Source of the DNA: a virus
Taxonomy: Duplodnaviria > Heunggongvirae > Uroviricota > Caudoviricetes
Virus record (IMG/VR): IMGVR_UViG_2684622670_000007
Location: 1 to 5,383 of that record
DNA length: 5,383 nt
Strand: one strand, 5' to 3'
Part shown: in pieces, positions 1 through 5,383 of the stretch
How the letters are laid out: every line of letters begins with the position of its first letter
Position numbering within the stretch: position 1 is the stretch's first letter
The notes under the pieces: model-generated
Told to the model about the DNA's origin: nothing
Seen by the model: only the letters and a program-made list of their open reading frames with translations
The model's database searches: none
Position numbers and translations under genes: made by a program

Positions 1-436
1 GTACCGGTTTAACCTCGTCACGGGGCTTTCTGATGGCTGAAAGACGCTTTACAAGTTCATCCATCGCCTGACTCGATGCGTCGATGGTTCCGCTTTGGAT
101 TGGTTCACGCATTTCATCCATGATTTCCAGCACCAGACGGCGGTGATAGTTATCCGCGACCATTCCGGCATATCCCTTCAGGTTTGCGGCACTCGGGCAG
201 TTTTTGCTGGTCATCAGGATTGACGTGAAATGCTCCTCTCCGCACGCCTCGGCAACCATCAGCGCGTCGATTAGGTTTCTGTTTCGCGCCTGCTTCCGGA
301 TAACCTCGAAGGCTTTCCGGTAGAGCGGAATTGAAAACGCTTCCGGCTCAAGCGTTGCCAGAACGTCACTGGCAGTTGGTGTTAATCCACCAATCAGCAG
401 GCCACCGATAACGCTCGCTTCGATATCCTGTTTCAT
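1..436 (-). CDS. Replicative DNA helicase, DnaB family (phage P22 gene 12-type), N-terminal ~145 codons only; gene continues past the left edge
   Basis: Manual minus-strand translation from ATG (revcomp 434-436) gives [17 protein letters not shown]...[18 protein letters not shown]..., matching the conserved DnaB N-terminal domain (E. coli DnaB ...EAEQSVLGGLML...NTPSAANISAYADIV...). The start overlaps the stop of the upstream O-like gene (ATGA), suggesting translational coupling. Not in the ORF track because it is truncated by the window edge. Confidence 0.7.
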
Positions 437-1380
437 GCAATCCCCCTGTCTGCAAACTTTCCTTCCCGTACTCCCGTTAACGAATCTTCCCTCAGCAGGT
501 AATCAAAATCTGCCGTCCAGCCCGTGTCGTTGTCTCCGAAGTAAAACGGCTTGGCCTGATGCACAAACGCCCTGACATACGCTCTGAAACCGTCCACGTT
601 TGGCGTTTTCAGTTGCGGGATAATTTTCTTCAGGCGGCGTTTGCGTTTCTCGTTGACCGCAACAGCGTGTGGAAGTCTGTCACCGACTTCGGTGTTGTAG
701 GCGTTCAGGAAGGATTCGTAGTCGATTCGTTCTGCCTTGCGACGTTCAGGTTTAACCTGCCAATCGCCTCCCCCATTGGGGGGTAGGGGGGTATTATTTA
801 TATTCTTGTTAATACCTTCTTGTTCATGATGTGCGGTTGTTTGTGCGGCTTCATGTGCGCTTTCATGTGCGGCATGTACTCTGAAAGCCGCGCCATTACT
901 GGCTTCGTCATGTGCGGCATCATGTGCGGTTGTTTGTGCGGCTTCATGTGCGGGTGAATCGTCCGTTTTTTGAGCATATTCATGGTAATTTGTGATGGTA
1001 ATCACACGACCTTTTTGCTTCTCTCCATCAATGGTGATCATCTCCTCTTTCACAAAAACCTGAAGCATCCGCTCAACCTGATCACGGCTTGCCGGCTTGC
1101 CATGCCTGTCGCATAACTGAAGACCTAAATCAGCTGCTGTCACAACCAGTTGACCGGGTTGCAGATGCCATTCATGACCTTTGAAATTCGCTTTGTATGG
1201 CTTTCTGGCGGCATTCAGGAGAAGGTTTTCCCACAGGGTGCGAAGATAAACATCTTTCGCCCATGACTGTTTCAGAATGCTCCGGTACAACGGAATGTAA
1301 CCAGTTTTCTGGTTCTCCATCCTGTTGCTCCTGCGCTCGTGTGCGGCGCTGAAATCGTAGATTTTTGCTGTATTGCTCAT
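433..1380 (-). CDS. Replication initiation protein, lambda O / P22 gp18-like (315 aa)
   Basis: N-terminus MSNTAKI... resembles lambda O (MTNTAKI...). Sits downstream of cII and upstream of the helicase, as in lambdoid replication modules. The central low-complexity linker ([17 protein letters not shown]...) is encoded by the iteron arrays. A Shine-Dalgarno-like AGGCAGGT precedes the ATG. Confidence 0.85.
790..953. repeat. Putative phage replication origin inside the O-like gene: two arrays of four 12-bp-spaced iterons (core TGTGCGG) plus a flanking AT-rich segment
   Basis: TGTGCGG cores (one TGTGCGC variant) start at 830, 842, 854, 866 and at 911, 923, 935, 947, giving an exact 12-bp period within each array. 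A 35-bp unit at 825-859 is repeated at 918-952 with 34/35 identity. The AT-rich stretch 790-824 lies immediately downstream in the O reading direction, the same iteron-then-AT-rich order as lambda ori. Confidence 0.6.
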
Positions 1381-1382
1381 AA

Positions 1383-1655
1383 CTACCTGCCTTGACGAAA
1401 GACCTTAAGAACATCGTTAAACTGACTTACGGATATGTCTTCTTTGAGCAGCTTTTCCAGAAATGCGTTTGGAATGAACGTATATCCCTCCTCTTTTGGT
1501 AGGGACGGGAGCAACGCCCTCGCCTCAGCCTTCAGAAGCTCAGTTCTGGCAACTTTCACAAAAGAGATTTGAGTTCTTTCATCAATGGAACGAAGGAAGC
1601 GCAAACGCTTAACTTCTTTGTGTGTATCAGGTGGATTAAAGCCTTTGTTTCGCAT
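1383..1655 (-). CDS. Hypothetical protein (90 aa) between cII and the O-like gene
   Basis: Internal ATG (revcomp 1653-1655) is preceded by GAGGTAA at good spacing. The 146-aa version in the ORF track would overlap the cII-like gene by about 145 bp in another frame, so the shorter start is preferred. The stop lies 2 nt before the O-like ATG. No homologue recognised by eye. Confidence 0.5.
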   Translation of the reverse strand: MRNKGFNPPDTHKEVKRLRFLRSIDERTQISFVKVARTELLKAEARALLPSLPKEEGYTFIPNAFLEKLLKEDISVSQFNDVLKVFRQGR

Positions 1656-1666
1656 ATAATTACCTC

Positions 1667-1735
1667 GTTGGATGTTATTAAAATTCCATTTGTATTTGAT
1701 CAGAACGCTCGGTCTTGCACACCGGGCTTTTTTTA
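1667..1735 (+). ncRNA. OOP-like antisense RNA (promoter pO-like plus intrinsic terminator), antisense to the 3' end of cII
   Basis: Perfect -10 TATAAT at 1655-1660 with a weak -35. Plus-strand hairpin 1707-1713/1721-1727 (7 bp, one G-U) followed by T7 (1728-1734) lies inside the cII 3' coding region. The predicted ~68-nt transcript would overlap cII by ~57 nt, as lambda OOP does. Confidence 0.45.
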
Positions 1736-1977
1736 TTGGTGAGTCCATCAAGCGCATACTTAAAAGCCCTGCTAATCGGACTGATGTCTGATGCCATTCC
1801 AAAAGCACACAAGACCGAAGCAATAAATCTCCAGTCCGTTCTGCTTATCTTCGATTCATGACAGCCAATCATCTTTGCCAGACCGCGCTGGGTAAGCGTT
1901 GACAGGTTGATGAGTAAATCTGTTTCTGCGCGATCAACGTCGCGCTGTGATAGTTTGCTGTAACTTGTTTGTTCCAT
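1678..1977 (-). CDS. cII: cII-like transcriptional activator (99 aa)
   Basis: The translation aligns with lambda CII from recall: HTH region ...ESKISRTDW... and C-terminus ...LTNKKSPVCKTERSDQIQMEF versus lambda ...LTNKKRPAATERSEQIQMEF. Position downstream of cro and nutR is as expected. Confidence 0.85.
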   Translation of the reverse strand: MEQTSYSKLSQRDVDRAETDLLINLSTLTQRGLAKMIGCHESKISRTDWRFIASVLCAFGMASDISPISRAFKYALDGLTNKKSPVCKTERSDQIQMEF

Positions 1978-1987
1978 TTCTTATGAT
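1955..1987 (+). promoter_or_regulatory. PRE-like cII-dependent promoter: TTGC-N6-TTGT (1955-1968) with candidate -10 TATGAT (1982-1987), directed toward cI and antisense to cro
   Basis: Lambda CII binds TTGC-N6-TTGC repeats flanking the -35 of PRE, located over the first codons of cII on the opposite strand. The same geometry is seen here (cII ATG = revcomp 1975-1977). The -10 is inferred from spacing. Confidence 0.5.
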
Positions 1988-2004
1988 TTCCAATAGTGAA
2001 TATT

Positions 2005-2027
2005 ACGCATCTGTTGATGCGTTTTTT
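2005..2027 (+). terminator. Intrinsic-terminator-like hairpin plus T-run on the plus strand in the cro-cII intergenic region
   Basis: ACGCATC (2005-2011), loop tgtt, GATGCGT (2016-2022), then a T-run through 2027. On the minus strand (cII leader) the same hairpin is preceded by an A-run and is not terminator-like. Function uncertain. Confidence 0.35.
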
Positions 2028-2028
2028 G

Positions 2029-2067
2029 TGGGGACGAATCATCCCCGACCTGATTGTTTAAAGAGCG
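2029..2067 (-). promoter_or_regulatory. nutR-like site: boxA (minus-strand CGCTCTTTAAACAA, plus coords 2054-2067) and boxB hairpin (plus coords 2029-2047)
   Basis: boxA is close to the recalled consensus CGCTCTTTAACAA. The hairpin GGGGA-ugauucg-UCCCC reads the same as the one downstream of PL (3761-3779). It lies between cro and cII, as lambda nutR does. Confidence 0.6.
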
Positions 2068-2074
2068 GTGTTAC

Positions 2075-2299
2075 TTATGCTGCCTGATTCGGTTTTGGAA
2101 ACAGGTGTGGCAAATCGGGGCGAATTTCGTAAGCCTTGATCTGCCCTCCAGTGGCGTTAACGATGGCGGTAACTTTCTCTGGAGAGACCAACCCGCCTTT
2201 CAGCCATTTGTGTACTGCTGGCTGCGTTACACCACACTTGTCGGCAAGGCGCTTTTGGCTACCGACAATTTTCAAGGCTCGTTGAATTACTAAATTCAT
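2075..2299 (-). CDS. cro: Cro-like repressor, HTH_XRE family (74 aa from the preferred start; ORF track extends to 2320)
   Basis: HTH segment GSQKRLADKCGVTQPAVHKW. First gene downstream of predicted PR. The ATG at 2297-2299 is preceded by AGAGGT at 7-nt spacing, whereas the ATG at 2318-2320 has no SD and lies about 6 nt from the predicted transcription start. Confidence 0.75.
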   Translation of the reverse strand: MNLVIQRALKIVGSQKRLADKCGVTQPAVHKWLKGGLVSPEKVTAIVNATGGQIKAYEIRPDLPHLFPKPNQAA

Positions 2300-2332
2300 G
2301 AGCATACCTCTTGTGGTCATTACTTATAACCA

Positions 2333-2361
2333 AAGATAACTCAAGTTATAAAAAATAGCAA
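2333..2361 (-). promoter_or_regulatory. PR-like promoter (minus strand): -35 TTGCTA (2356-2361), 17-bp spacer, -10 TATCTT (2333-2338)
   Basis: Sigma70-like hexamers overlapping OR2 and OR1. The same -10 hexamer and flanking AGTTATCTTT are found at the predicted PL. Confidence 0.55.
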
Positions 2362-2398
2362 TAACCTTTGTTATTTTACTTTGGATAACCGTAGTTAT
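2336..2398. promoter_or_regulatory. Tripartite right operator: OR1 2336-2349 (ATAACtcaaGTTAT), OR2 2361-2374 (ATAACctttGTTAT), OR3 2385-2398 (ATAACcgtaGTTAT)
   Basis: Three perfect 14-bp palindromes of form ATAAC-N4-GTTAT with 24-25 bp centre-to-centre spacing, between divergent cro and cI. Related sites occur in the OL region. Confidence 0.7.
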
Positions 2399-2401
2399 AG
2401 A
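2373..2401 (+). promoter_or_regulatory. PRM-like promoter for cI: -10 TATAGA (2396-2401), poor -35; the cI mRNA is probably leaderless or nearly so
   Basis: The -10 overlaps OR3 and the predicted start is 1-3 nt before the cI ATG (2411), as for lambda PRM. The weak -35 is consistent with an activator-dependent promoter. Inference only. Confidence 0.4.
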
Positions 2402-2410
2402 TTTGTGGGT

Positions 2411-3118
2411 ATGAAAACATTCGCAGAAAGACTAAATGCAGCCATGAGCTCAGCAGGTGTATCGCAATCACAGCTTGCTGACATGGTTGGAATATCTCAG
2501 CCAGCCATACAGAAGATGTCATCCGGTAAAACAAACGGATCTCGCAAGATGGTTGAATTAGCCAATGCTTTAAAAGTACGCCCTGAATGGCTTAGCTCTG
2601 GTATTGGTGAAATGAGGGATGGTACACATGAAGAACCATCCAATGTCCGTGAATCATCTTTAAAAGCTGTGGTATGGGAAGATATTAAAAGAAACGATGA
2701 CGAGTTTGTCGCGTTGCCTCTTCTTAACGTTTCGCTTTCAGCTGGAAGCGGTAGCTGCGAGCTAGAGGAATCATCAGAGTTCTCTTTGGTTTTCAGAAAG
2801 TACTATCTGAAAAAGATGGGGGTATCTGAAAGATCAGCCAAGCTAGTTAGGGTTGTAGGGCAAAGCATGGAACCAACGCTTCACGACGGAGATGTTGTTG
2901 GTGTTAACACACAAGATACCACAATCAGAGATGGTAAAACCTACGCTATTTGCCAGTCTGATTTGTTACGAGTAAAAACATTAATCGCCACCCCTACATC
3001 GGTGATAATCAGATCAATAAATCGCGAAGAGTACCCAGATGAAGTAATGGATAGAGATGAATTTCATGAAACCGTAAGGATTATTGGCAGAGTATTCTGG
3101 TCGTCTCATAGTTGGTAA
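2411..3118 (+). CDS. cI: CI-like prophage repressor: N-terminal HTH_XRE domain plus C-terminal S24 (LexA-type) autopeptidase domain
   Basis: HTH QSQLADMVGISQPAIQKM; S24 motifs GQSMEP (Ser nucleophile) and RVKTL (Lys); candidate Ala-Gly cleavage site in LSAGSG. The ORF track begins at TTG 2381, but the ATG at 2411 (MKTFAERL...) fits the promoter geometry. Confidence 0.9.
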   Translation: MKTFAERLNAAMSSAGVSQSQLADMVGISQPAIQKMSSGKTNGSRKMVELANALKVRPEWLSSGIGEMRDGTHEEPSNVRESSLKAVVWEDIKRNDDEFVALPLLNVSLSAGSGSCELEESSEFSLVFRKYYLKKMGVSERSAKLVRVVGQSMEPTLHDGDVVGVNTQDTTIRDGKTYAICQSDLLRVKTLIATPTSVIIRSINREEYPDEVMDRDEFHETVRIIGRVFWSSHSW

Positions 3119-3158
3119 CCGATAATCAGAAGAAGACTTACGGAAGTGCGGAGGGATA

Positions 3159-3455
3159 ATGGAATTTCTGATAGTTTTTGTTGTTGTTTTGGTCATCATT
3201 CTTTTTGTTTTGCTAAGCATTAGCAAAAAGCTATCTCAAACGATTGAACATAGCTCTAATCGCGCAAAAGAAGAAGACCATCTAATTGATATAAAAGAGA
3301 TTCTCTCTGATATAAAAATCACATTAGATGAAATAAAATACACAACAGATCTAATTGAACAGTATAAAATACCAACCCCAAACGAGAGAAAAGCAATAGA
3401 TCAATATCGTATTGACTTAGAAATCGACGAAATGCTAAGCAAAAGAAAAGACTAA
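3159..3455 (+). CDS. Small membrane protein (98 aa): one N-terminal transmembrane helix then a charged, probably coiled-coil domain; sits in the position of lambda rexAB and is probably co-transcribed with cI
   Basis: Strong SD GGAGG (3150-3154) before the ATG. Hydrophobic residues 3-21 (FLIVFVVVLVIILFVLLSI) are followed by a K/E/D-rich region. Markedly AT-rich compared with the flanking phage genes. Lies 41 bp downstream of cI and is followed by an intrinsic terminator. Confidence 0.6.
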   Translation: MEFLIVFVVVLVIILFVLLSISKKLSQTIEHSSNRAKEEDHLIDIKEILSDIKITLDEIKYTTDLIEQYKIPTPNERKAIDQYRIDLEIDEMLSKRKD

Positions 3456-3460
3456 AAACA

Positions 3461-3490
3461 CCCGGCCTCAGCGCCGGGTTTTCTTTTCCT
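3461..3490 (+). terminator. Rho-independent terminator ending the cI operon; possibly bidirectional
   Basis: Stem CCCGGC (3461-3466) / GCCGGG (3473-3478), 6-nt loop, then TTTTCTTTTCC. An A-run upstream (3454-3458) gives a U-run for the opposite strand. Confidence 0.75.
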
Positions 3491-3608
3491 GCCGTCCCCC
3501 CCCCAATCAACCATCCTCATCATAGACAAGCATCAAGCCAAAGGTAGCACTTTCACCCCGCACGCAAGCCCTCAAACACCAATCAATCAGCAACATTTAC
3601 AAAAATAA

Positions 3609-3691
3609 AATACCTTTGTTATCCATCACCTATAACTTATTTACCATAAAATATAAACTAAGTTATTGACCACACCTATAACCTAAGTTAT
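3609..3691. promoter_or_regulatory. Left operator region: OL1 3678-3691 (ATAACctaaGTTAT, perfect), OL2 3653-3666 (one mismatch), weaker OL3-like site 3609-3622
   Basis: Same 14-bp ATAAC-N4-GTTAT family as the OR sites. OL1 and OL2 are 25 bp apart and overlap the predicted PL hexamers. Confidence 0.6.
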
Positions 3692-3694
3692 CTT
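3666..3694 (+). promoter_or_regulatory. PL-like promoter: -35 TTGACC (3666-3671), 17-bp spacer, -10 TATCTT (3689-3694)
   Basis: Sigma70-like hexamers overlapping OL2 and OL1, directed toward nutL and the N-like gene. Confidence 0.55.
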
Positions 3695-3740
3695 TAAGCC
3701 ATCAGCAGGACGCAGGAAGCCAAACGGAACAGATTGGCAG

Positions 3741-3779
3741 GCTCTTTAACATTGATGGAATGGGGATGATTCGTCCCCA
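3741..3779 (+). promoter_or_regulatory. nutL-like site: boxA GCTCTTTAACA (3741-3751) and boxB hairpin (3761-3779)
   Basis: boxA-like motif followed 9 nt later by a hairpin, TGGGGA-tgattcg-TCCCCA, that matches the nutR hairpin at 18 of 19 positions. Lies between PL and the N-like gene. Confidence 0.6.
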
Positions 3780-3933
3780 CCAAAGAGAGGTTGGCTTTGG
3801 GATTTGATGAATGTGCAGGTCGATGCACTAACGCTTAGCGGTGAGCACCTGCCTTTGGGGCAGGATGGGTAGCCGCAATCAGGAGATCGACACCTGACAT
3901 CAAATCACCAAAGTCAATCATCGGAGGTATCCA

Positions 3934-4140
3934 GTGAAAGCAAGAGAGATTCGCAAACTCGAACGCGCTCGTAAGCACAAAGAGGCGACAGCAAAACGTA
4001 AAAATATTGACCGTGTTTCAATGGTGGTTTCGCTAGCAGGAGCGAATAGGAAGAAGGTTGAATGTGGTTCGTGCTGCCTGCCAAACGTAGCTCTTTACGC
4101 GGCAGGCTACCGGAAATCAAAACAACTGACGGCGAGGTGA
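3934..4140 (+). CDS. N: N-like transcription antitermination protein (68 aa, GTG start)
   Basis: First gene downstream of PL and nutL. Arginine/lysine-rich N-terminus (MKAREIRKLERARKHKEATAKRK). The C-terminal part resembles N proteins of P22-type phages from recall (unverified). Strong SD GGAGG (3923-3927) 6 nt before the GTG. Confidence 0.7.
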   Translation: MKAREIRKLERARKHKEATAKRKNIDRVSMVVSLAGANRKKVECGSCCLPNVALYAAGYRKSKQLTAR

Positions 4141-4161
4141 CGATCCCCCGCCGTCGAGGAA

Positions 4162-4701
4162 CTAAATTAGCTCATCAGCTTTACCAGCAAAGCGCATATA
4201 ACACTCATAGAACCAGACGTCAGGTATAACAAATTTCTCTTTACCTGACGCGCTGTAAGTCACACCTGAGCGATGGAGAAGGCCTTTTCTCATAAGAGAT
4301 AAAGCGACCGGATCGCCGTGCTTAAGTACGATTTTGTTATTTGCCATAACAGCAAATGCTAAAACCTCTTTTTCCTGAATACTCAGAGAATTGAACAGGC
4401 GCTCAGTCTCCACAATTACTTTAGCCTCATCTCTCTTACTGAGATATTTTTTATATCTGTCTGAAGATGCCAGAAATATAAACTCCATCACCCTGTTCAG
4501 AACATAACTGATACACAAAAGCATTGCGTAATACATCCAGTGATCTGGAAGTATTTCGGGGTTCCTTATATCTACCCACTCTTTAATTGATGCTGGGGTG
4601 ATTATTATCAAGGCAATTAAAATAATAAGCATATGAATTAACTGTTGTAGCGTAAGACCACGCAGGAAGAAACGTAATAGTTCCTGCCACCAGTTACTCA
4701 T
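4162..4701 (-). CDS. Membrane protein (179 aa), putative superinfection exclusion protein B (SieB)-like
   Basis: Convergent with and abutting the N-like gene, the arrangement I recall for lambda sieB and N. N-terminal hydrophobic segment (LIHMLIILIALIIITP) and soluble C-terminal domain. GGAG-type SD before the ATG. Low GC. The assignment rests on position, size and topology only. Confidence 0.5.
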   Translation of the reverse strand: MSNWWQELLRFFLRGLTLQQLIHMLIILIALIIITPASIKEWVDIRNPEILPDHWMYYAMLLCISYVLNRVMEFIFLASSDRYKKYLSKRDEAKVIVETERLFNSLSIQEKEVLAFAVMANNKIVLKHGDPVALSLMRKGLLHRSGVTYSASGKEKFVIPDVWFYECYMRFAGKADELI

Positions 4702-4720
4702 CGGTGAATCTCCATCATTC

Positions 4721-4768
4721 TCTCTGTAGGGGTGAATAGAGTTTATCCGATTTCTCGCTGTAGGGGTA
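4721..4768. repeat. Imperfect direct repeat with shared core CTGTAGGGGT in the divergent intergenic region
   Basis: TTCTCTCTGTAGGGGTGAATAGAG (about 4719-4742) and TTTCTCGCTGTAGGGGTACACGAG (about 4751-4774); the cores are ~35 bp apart, between the divergent SieB-like and 149-aa genes. Confidence 0.45.
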
Positions 4769-4846
4769 CACGAGAACCACCGAGCCTGATGTGGTTAAAA
4801 GACAGGCGCAATCTTTACAACCGCAATCCACTATTTAAGGTGATAT

Positions 4847-5296
4847 ATGGAAGAACAAGCAAACAAGATTCTCGTAGAACTACTGCAAAAAGCCAGTAAT
4901 GGAATAGACGCGGCTGTTTCATTTAGCCAGGCACAGATTCCTGATGTTGTTCATCAGTTGCTGCTATGGAATATGGTTGACAGTCTGATTAAAACATTAA
5001 TAGCCATTCTAACAATCCCACTGGTTTTCTGGTTTATGAAGAAGCAGTGCCAAAGAGTTGAGACAGGTAAAATCGGTGATGAAGGATACTCATGGGAAAG
5101 GGGAAATCCCAAATACAGGCCGACAATGGTTTGGGATAGCAAAGGAGATATTAACCTTCTTATCATGCCATTGGTTGGAGTTTTGACTCTGTGGGGGATT
5201 TTTATTATTGGTGTAGTAACCAATATGACTTGGTTAAAAATTTGGCTGGCCCCAAAACTTTACCTTATCGAATATGCAGCATCATTGGTTAAGTAA
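4847..5296 (+). CDS. Hypothetical membrane protein (149 aa, two predicted transmembrane helices)
   Basis: SD AAGG (4837-4840) 6 nt before the ATG. Hydrophobic segments LIKTLIAILTIPLVFWFM and LLIMPLVGVLTLWGIFIIGVV. Low-GC, divergent from the SieB-like gene. No homologue recognised. Confidence 0.55.
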   Translation: MEEQANKILVELLQKASNGIDAAVSFSQAQIPDVVHQLLLWNMVDSLIKTLIAILTIPLVFWFMKKQCQRVETGKIGDEGYSWERGNPKYRPTMVWDSKGDINLLIMPLVGVLTLWGIFIIGVVTNMTWLKIWLAPKLYLIEYAASLVK

Positions 5297-5383
5297 TTTC
5301 AGGCCGCATAATCGTCCTTTATTTTTGGCATAAACAACAGAATAAACACTGCACTGTGTATTCATTCCAACGAGTGAATACAC

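Follow-up and report, generated by a model that had tools for sequence, protein, structure and literature searches.

This analysis concerns ORF98, a 98-codon open reading frame (ORF) in a 5,383-nucleotide (nt) stretch of a Caudoviricetes virus (IMG/VR record IMGVR_UViG_2684622670_000007, positions 1 to 5,383; "the window" denotes this whole stretch). The window is a lambdoid immunity region in the orientation opposite to the standard lambda map. In it, ORF98 takes the place that rexA-rexB occupy in lambda: it follows cI, precedes OL/PL and shares its strand with cI and N. An earlier note, made from the letters of the sequence, had assigned the gene to this rex-like slot, and the coordinates agree (ORF98 at 3159-3455, between cI at 2411-3118 and OL/PL at 3609-3694). 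The features that bear directly on ORF98 are the following:

2337-2350, 2361-2374 and 2387-2400: OR operators between cro and cI, identified from sequence as repeats common to OL
2411-3118 (+): cI-type repressor gene, 235 amino acids (aa) from the ATG at 2411, upstream cistron of the presumed operon
3119-3158 (+): cI-ORF98 spacer of 40 nt, with the ribosome-binding site GGAGGG at 3150-3155
3121-3568 (+): variable-cargo segment of the immunity region, delimited by BLASTN of the window against loci L058, L059 and L057
3159-3455 (+): ORF98, 98 aa, PHROG 18389
3460-3488 (+; the minus strand scores too): intrinsic terminator, stem-loop 3460-3479 and T-tract
3609-3622, 3653-3666 and 3678-3691: OL operators
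3666 (TTGACC) to 3694 (TATCTT): PL promoter, TTGACC-17-TATCTT, facing N
3934-4140 (+): N, with a match to Pfam N_peptide (2.7e-16)

The frame of cI from the ATG at 2411 is the same in the RefSeq annotation, and its product matches HTH_3 (8e-07) and Peptidase_S24 (1.8e-17) in Pfam and PHROG 4, "transcriptional repressor". The palindrome ATAAC-N4/5-GTTAT occurs in three copies between cro and cI and again at 3609-3691, forming the OR/OL repeats. By analogy with lambda, from which the position of the repressor maintenance promoter PRM is taken, the OR region is probably the source of the transcript that would carry ORF98.

The ORF98 gene and its family

The ATG at 3159 is the earliest start codon after the previous in-frame stop, and the GGAGGG ribosome-binding site ends 3-4 nt upstream of it. 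Beyond the stop codon, a 7-bp stem with six G-C pairs (3460-3479) is followed by TTTTCTTTT. This terminator was called on both strands, its hairpin has a folding energy of -13.7 kcal/mol (z = -2.4 versus shuffles), and by analogy it can be regarded as the functional equivalent of lambda t_imm. The content of guanine plus cytosine (GC) is 30.6% in ORF98, as compared with 42.7% in cI, 49.7% in O, about 49-50% in cro/O/N and 44.4% in the window, and the same contrast with the neighbouring genes is seen in the Citrobacter loci. The strong Shine-Dalgarno site, the own terminator and the GC content far below that of cI and the replication genes, all described in the earlier note, were thus confirmed.

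Comparison of ORF98 with three Citrobacter-type homologues gave 0.70-0.77 synonymous (dS) and 0.14-0.15 nonsynonymous (dN) substitutions per site, i.e., a dN/dS of 0.18-0.20; by region, the ratio against these homologues amounts to 0.07-0.09 for residues 44-98 and 0.25-0.48 for the linker. ORF98 is a real gene under purifying selection. It is not a chance ORF, since its dN/dS is low and other prophages carry family members conserved down to 24-47% identity.

Just upstream of ORF98, within the 3' end of cI, we noted a promoter-like site, TTGGCA-17-CATAGT (9/12), at 3084-3112 (+), which recalls the internal rexB promoter of lambda. Promoter-like sites are fewer in the window than in shuffled sequence, so that this site alone is no evidence of a promoter.

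The protein matches PHROG 18389, annotated as of unknown function, over its whole length (E 1.3e-60, 202.5 bits, residues 1-98 to positions 1-98 of a 98-position model); this membership tells nothing about function. Scans of Pfam, NCBIfam and PADLOC returned nothing above threshold, and the sub-threshold matches to DUF5385, MscL and ZorB/MotB were rejected as driven by the transmembrane (TM) helix or by composition. In PADLOC-DB v2 only ZorB3 was hit, over the TM helix and without significance (E 0.0082, 13.7 bits), while in the homologue at locus L041 the TM helix and the helix that follows align with ZorB1 at E 2.5e-4. We consider the ZorB/MotB similarity of the family to be probably composition-driven. 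MotB-type stators require an acidic residue in the TM helix, and a MotB/ZorB-like stator subunit was rejected because ORF98 has no acidic TM residue and no peptidoglycan-binding domain. A profile search against PDB sequences gave designed coiled coils only, and Foldseek found no match in BFVD or PDB. The statement of the earlier note that the protein belongs to no characterised family stands, PHROG 18389 being all that the profile and structure searches yielded. Neither the RefSeq accessions nor the PHROG id turned up in a search of the literature; a paper on the small RNA svsR was set aside, as it concerns another cI and is not relevant to ORF98.

The family is small. A word-indexed search of 5.8 billion proteins recovered relatives only from E. 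coli and Citrobacter, and a profile search with HMMER, run exhaustively over 1.84 billion cluster representatives, recovered 13 proteins of 94-126 aa. Twelve of these 13 are built alike, with a hydrophobic helix at the N-terminus, then a linker whose length varies, then a conserved C-terminal block that reads approximately (D/E)I(K/R)Y(T/V)TD(I/L)IE-Y-(K)LP---ER--(I/L)D----(D/N)-E(I/V). Identity within the family is 24-47% in other prophages and 24-76% across genera, Yersinia frederiksenii being a named source of a family member other than E. coli. Of 5426 complete E. coli genomes, 102 contain ORF98 itself, in every case on the chromosome, and in about 100 complete E. coli genomes it is a RefSeq coding sequence (hypothetical protein). 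By tblastn against 50,697 phage records it was detected in one only, the Stx1a-converting phage Stx1a_10051, where the gene is unannotated; it is present also in prophages of O26/O111-type Shiga toxin-producing E. coli (STEC). The same search of plasmids gave a single weak match, on a 1.4-Mb E. coli record.

A search for related loci in species-representative genomes confirmed nothing, and a degenerate codon-pattern scan of such genomes returned seven chance matches and one true homologue. The latter (L015, 68-418) lies on a 1257-bp contig of Streptomyces sp. NPDC050659, is near-identical to the family member of the P22-like viral contig L031, and most likely represents contamination rather than an actinobacterial homologue. 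At two further loci (L064, 5001-5822, and L065, 1786-2607) a relative designated P0035 stands in a toxin-antitoxin-like arrangement with the gene of a 193-aa PIN-domain protein (Pfam E 3.7e-07); the two loci have shared neighbours, so the P0035-PIN association represents a single lineage.

A cassette behind phage repressors

We found that in E. coli ORF98 is always positioned behind the same cI and cro, while the flanking replication and PL-operon modules vary. This cI (at least 90% identity) is present in about 113 genomes, and ORF98 in 102. When the window is aligned by BLASTN with prophages carrying the same cI, homology breaks at 3120 and resumes at 3569-3601. Two of these E. coli prophages, sharing both cI and cro with the window, carry instead behind cI a gene for a DUF3024 protein and one for a 173-177-aa hypothetical protein (L058, 3246-4310; L059, 4246-5260). 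The DUF3024 protein matches the PADLOC candidate PDC-S43 (E 2e-41); its 173-177-aa partner had no match. In L057, which carries a 78%-identical cI variant, there is no gene on that strand in the slot. The cI-OL slot is a cargo hotspot, because prophages of the same cI hold differing cargo there or none.

In the Citrobacter-type loci, only window positions 3149-3482 are matched (BLASTN, 80-81% nucleotide identity), and the flanks are unrelated. The shared segment comprises the ribosome-binding site, the ORF and the terminator hairpin; with just 10 nt ahead of the ATG, it has no space for a promoter of its own. In the wider context set, composed of IMG/VR contigs and of loci from an exact protein look-up, the homologues directly follow genes of CI-type repressors with helix-turn-helix and S24 domains, at gaps of 1, 1, 12, 14, 15, 15, 23 and 40 nt. 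These repressors mostly share 18-64% identity with one another and thus represent at least six types. The divergence of ORF98 and that of the repressor are uncoupled, as seen between the window and L006 (76% identity for ORF98, 23% for the repressor). On two P22-like contigs, the homologue is located 36 nt behind a repressor gene of the Arc and Mnt domain type, between the genes for the tailspike and an SLT-domain ejection protein; the equivalent interval of P22 reads mnt-orf59a-terminator, followed by sieA. Downstream of the gene, an intrinsic terminator is present in the window, in Citrobacter and in the L032/L051 and L041 lineages. A related terminator also ends the alternative cargo in L058, so that the ownership of the terminator is ambiguous.

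ORF98 appears to borrow the promoter of the repressor. Compared across these loci, it shows itself to be an apparently promoter-less cassette that repeatedly came to occupy, or was kept in, the final position of a maintenance-repressor operon, and its co-transcription with the repressor is probable. The co-expression proposed in the earlier note receives strong, if indirect, support from homologues found 1-40 nt behind at least six dissimilar CI types and also behind Mnt, and from the lack of room for a promoter. The note had further proposed that the gene is a moron. With regard to morons in the sense of Hendrix and Juhala, we observed presence/absence polymorphism in the same immunity region, a deviant base composition and a terminator. 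As to an own promoter, there is only the 9/12 promoter-like site inside cI. The moron status is strongly supported in respect of polymorphism, composition and terminator; in related prophages the slot is taken by other cargo, as in L058 and L059, or has no gene on that strand, as in L057.

Another ORF was observed nearby in some loci. Between the repressor-operon terminator and OL, Citrobacter-type loci carry an opposite-strand ORF of 68-74 aa (L006, 6324-6530 (-); L008/L010, 6324-6548 (-)). A weakly similar ORF (11/20 identities) lies at 3361-3570 (-) in the otherwise empty slot of L057, an O157:H7 prophage. The 68-74-aa ORF had no PADLOC match, and the window has no equivalent of it.

The remaining genes of the window are as follows:

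433-1380 (-): O-like replication gene
about 1383-1658 (-): conserved 90-aa ORF between cII and the O-like gene, PHROG 2519 (function unknown, E 9e-57)
1678-1977 (-): cII
2075-2320 (-): cro
4162-4701 (-): SieB-like gene, Pfam PF14163 (E 2.8e-20), PHROG 1301 (E 4e-93)
4847-5296 (+): 149-aa membrane protein with hydrophobic segments in the PL operon region, PHROG 3054 (function unknown, E 2.8e-64)

The N ORF is just 68 aa long, starts with GTG and covers only positions 44-100 of the Pfam N_peptide model; in strain E2865, the equivalent stretch is called an incomplete "regulator" pseudogene by the Prokaryotic Genome Annotation Pipeline. Just past N, on the opposite strand, the SieB-like gene means that the prophage already has one recognised exclusion gene near ORF98. 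The 149-aa protein had no match in Pfam, NCBIfam or PADLOC. The spacer at 3483-3600 is non-coding and strongly C-rich (GC skew about -0.6), with a C9 homopolymer at 3496-3504; it is part of the E. coli variable segment and is not common to the Citrobacter cassettes. No Rfam family was matched across the whole window, this spacer included.

Predicted architecture and topology of the protein

Three parts can be distinguished in the ORF98 product:

residues 3-21 (3165-3221): single hydrophobic segment FLIVFVVVLVIILFVLLSI, mean Kyte-Doolittle hydropathy 3.67
residues 22-43 (3222-3287): conserved juxtamembrane S-I-S/N-K-K-L-S motif, then a linker variable in sequence and length
residues 44-98 (3288-3452): conserved acidic helix - K(I/L)PxP loop - helix domain, defined by alignments, dN/dS and the AlphaFold2 model

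About 42% of the 77 residues outside the first 21 are charged, and this part is predicted to be helical. The AlphaFold2 model is all-helical, with a mean predicted local distance difference test (pLDDT) score of 78-80. The TM helix is modelled at pLDDT 87-92, the linker lowest at 53-56, and the C-terminal domain as a helix at 45-68, a KIPTP loop and a helix at 74-96. Hydropathy and model thus agree with the earlier description of a single N-terminal TM helix followed by a charged C-terminal region. Residues Y69, P72, D81 and E88 are invariant across the family in our alignments. The residues L42, I45, L49, I52, L56, I59, T63 and I66 follow a 3-4-3-4 heptad-type spacing, which is compatible with a coiled coil or with helical-hairpin packing.

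None of the 19 family members examined has a lysine or arginine (K/R) in the 0-8 residues before the TM helix, and all have 1-4 K/R in the 15 residues that follow the helix; the tail is net acidic in these 19. Because these flank charges fit the positive-inside rule, the protein is predicted to be oriented N-out/C-in, with its conserved domain in the cytoplasm. A signal peptide with a periplasmic domain was rejected, being disfavoured by the flank charges and by how long the hydrophobic core is. Composed of aliphatic residues only, the TM helix lacks polar or channel-like ones and looks like an anchor rather than a pore. A pore former or holin was likewise rejected on account of this aliphatic helix and of the location of the gene outside any lysis cassette.

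Possible roles of ORF98

We tentatively favour the view that ORF98 is a promoter-less, moron-like cassette of the repressor operon whose product, a single-pass inner-membrane protein, most likely protects the lysogen from superinfecting phages. Placed at the end of that operon, ORF98 would be made whenever cI is made, i.e., in established lysogens and during establishment. Its product would span the inner membrane once, with the 2-residue N-terminus facing outward, and the variable linker would hold the conserved, acidic, probably self-associating helix-loop-helix at the cytoplasmic face of the membrane. From there it may block a superinfecting phage at or near the inner membrane, at genome delivery or another early step, and be SieA-like in action; alternatively, it may trigger abortive infection. 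Judged from position only, exclusion or defence is the most likely role, because the hotspot is home to rexAB, bstA and the candidate PDC-S43, and because the other location of the family corresponds to the orf59a/sieA interval of P22.

The cI-N interval is described as a mosaic hotspot that harbours rexAB and bstA and is served by a highly transcribed repressor promoter (Owen et al., PMC8585504). Like ORF98, lambda rexA/rexB lie after cI and before OL/PL on the strand of cI and N, and they share with it a foreign composition, a closing terminator and presumed PRM/PRE expression (PMC8585504). Yet lambda encodes two proteins, the sensor RexA and the multi-pass RexB, whereas ORF98 stands alone and has a single, aliphatic TM helix; its Pfam matches include no Rex family even at E <= 1, and only the map position is in common. 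BstA of BTP1 (Salmonella) resembles ORF98 in being a single gene downstream of a repressor, with a presumed shared promoter and its own terminator, and its architecture is kept across hosts (PMC8585504). BstA acts in the cytoplasm and localises to sites of phage DNA replication. There is no sequence relationship between the two. BstA is soluble, about 300 aa long and paired with an aba element that confers self-immunity, whereas ORF98 consists of a small membrane anchor and a helical hairpin.

SieA of P22 is expressed in the lysogen and resides in the inner membrane, with a conserved motif predicted to be cytoplasmic; it has 162-164 aa, three predicted TM helices and the motif FxRYPxEAxxFNK (PMC10883804). 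Genes of the ORF98 family fill the interval between mnt and the ejection gene that carries orf59a and sieA in P22, but ORF98 has one TM helix and the motif is absent. Alignment of the family profile by hhalign gave a probability of 0.3% with P22 SieA and was also null with P22 orf59a, and SieB (PF14163) was not matched by ORF98. HK97 gp15, T4 Imm and Sp, and lactococcal Sie2009 are short membrane proteins that block genome entry, and Sie2009-type genes adjoin the repressor. The active domains of these proteins are generally described as periplasmic, whereas that of ORF98 is predicted to be cytoplasmic. No Sie-like family matched ORF98 in sequence or fold, the sole Sie-like PHROG match having an E of 0.075. 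PDC-S43 (DUF3024), in turn, takes the position of ORF98 immediately behind this cI in further E. coli prophages, but the two proteins are unrelated, PDC-S43 has no more than candidate status as a defence gene, and it comes with a second gene. Nor does ORF98 resemble a type II (VapB-like) antitoxin, as it is followed by a terminator and not by a gene, and its N-terminus is a TM helix. By homology ORF98 belongs to none of these systems; it may work like a superinfection exclusion or abortive infection factor, but it is not a homologue of Rex, SieA or BstA.

Several observations weigh against a protective role. We found no similarity to any recognised defence or exclusion protein (PADLOC; hhalign against SieA and orf59a), and the literature search gave no mention of an ORF98 phenotype. 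A RexB-like pore is disfavoured because the TM helix is purely aliphatic. The weak site at 3084-3112 could be a separate source of transcription for ORF98. In E. coli strain 3CM (L005, 2767-4197), an insertion element of the IS3 family splits the ORF98 homologue and leaves a 75-aa 3' fragment; since the prophage is retained there, ORF98 is dispensable for prophage carriage. In addition, the most distant relatives lie away from repressors (on a Rep3 plasmid-like contig, in Pelagicoccus, after a SHOCT protein), and the TM-less 73-aa relative P0035 (E 1.4e-5) lies 18 nt upstream of the PIN-domain gene. Given these non-repressor contexts, the conserved domain is not intrinsically tied to prophage immunity.

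The alternative that survives best, although we consider it unlikely, is that ORF98 tunes the cycle of its own prophage, its tethered acidic hairpin sequestering or modulating a protein with an effect on lysogeny maintenance, induction or the timing of lysis. Candidate targets would include a membrane protease complex (for example FtsH/HflKC), an antirepressor-type factor or, in the manner of a tethered antitoxin, a nuclease. Such a role would suit the tie of the gene to two different maintenance repressors, CI and Mnt, the antitoxin-like position of the TM-less P0035 before a PIN-domain gene, and the strongest constraint falling on the C-terminal domain, as expected of a specific binding module. 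However, the slot is empty or holds other cargo beside the same cI/cro, and the gene is IS-disrupted once, which indicates that it is not integral to the immunity switch. Its movement among unrelated repressors argues against co-evolution with a particular one, and the PIN association is confined to one lineage, with no toxin gene adjacent at any prophage locus.

It also seems rather unlikely that ORF98 serves lysogenic conversion, altering the physiology of the host (for instance envelope stress, transport, motility or colonisation fitness) and playing no part against phages. AT-rich foreign cargo expressed from a lysogenic promoter would fit it, as would the presence of the gene in a Stx1a-converting phage and in O26/O111-type STEC prophages, and a membrane location suits interference with a host membrane complex. 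The sole hint is the weak, sub-threshold and probably composition-driven similarity to the MotB/ZorB N-terminus. On the other hand, no similarity to a virulence or fitness factor was found, both genomic positions are known for exclusion or abortive-infection genes, and the alternative cargo is a defence candidate.

A more speculative proposal, to which we give little credence, treats the C-terminal helix-loop-helix (IKY(T/V)TD-IE-Y-LP-ER-(I/L)D) as a portable protein-capture module and ORF98 as one of a new "tethered decoy" class of single-gene exclusion factors. The untethered form would be the antitoxin-like partner of the PIN protein, and the prophage form, made together with CI or Mnt, would be anchored to the inner membrane on its cytoplasmic side. 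In this position it might capture or inactivate one particular protein, either of an infecting phage or of its own prophage, the promoter-less cassette hopping between repressor operons.

Less probable still is the reverse topology (N-in/C-out, or a cleaved signal peptide), in which the helical domain would be periplasmic and block entry like T4 Spackle or the Sie2009 type. With about 20 hydrophobic residues followed by about 75 helical ones, ORF98 resembles such small periplasmic exclusion proteins in size and layout. Formally, S-I-S at residues 20-22 also fits the -3/-1 rule of a signal-peptidase site. But the absence of K/R before the helix in 19/19 members, with K/R clustered right after it, leaves no basic n-region, the hydrophobic core of 19-20 residues has the length of a TM helix and not of a signal peptide, and most homologues have at position 22 (-1) an N, a poor cleavage residue.

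The reading of ORF98 as non-functional, a fortuitous frame in the AT-rich filler that separates cI from the terminator, which its shortness, AT-richness and missing annotation in its one phage record might suggest, is effectively refuted by a dN/dS well below 1 at a dS of about 0.7-1.0, by the conservation of frame, length and motifs at 24-76% identity across genera, by the strong ribosome-binding site and by the RefSeq coding sequences in about 100 genomes.

Accessory genes of repressor operons in prophage immunity hotspots are a kind already well known, while the ORF98 family itself is uncharacterised. The cI-N and P22 immI intervals are the classic homes of the exclusion and abortive-infection genes rexAB, bstA and sieA, and here a small, rare family lands repeatedly in both of these repressor-driven slots, across unrelated immunity types and in several enterobacterial genera. 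Because it recurs in both, the family offers a compact, easily tested single-gene candidate for a new exclusion or defence activity, and its conserved hairpin offers residues to mutate (Y69, P72, D81 and E88). Its carriage by a Stx1a-converting phage and by O26/O111-type STEC could affect which phages, therapeutic ones or other Stx phages, infect those strains. If ORF98 proved to have no phage phenotype, its strict linkage to maintenance repressors would indicate an unrecognised accessory function in lysogeny.

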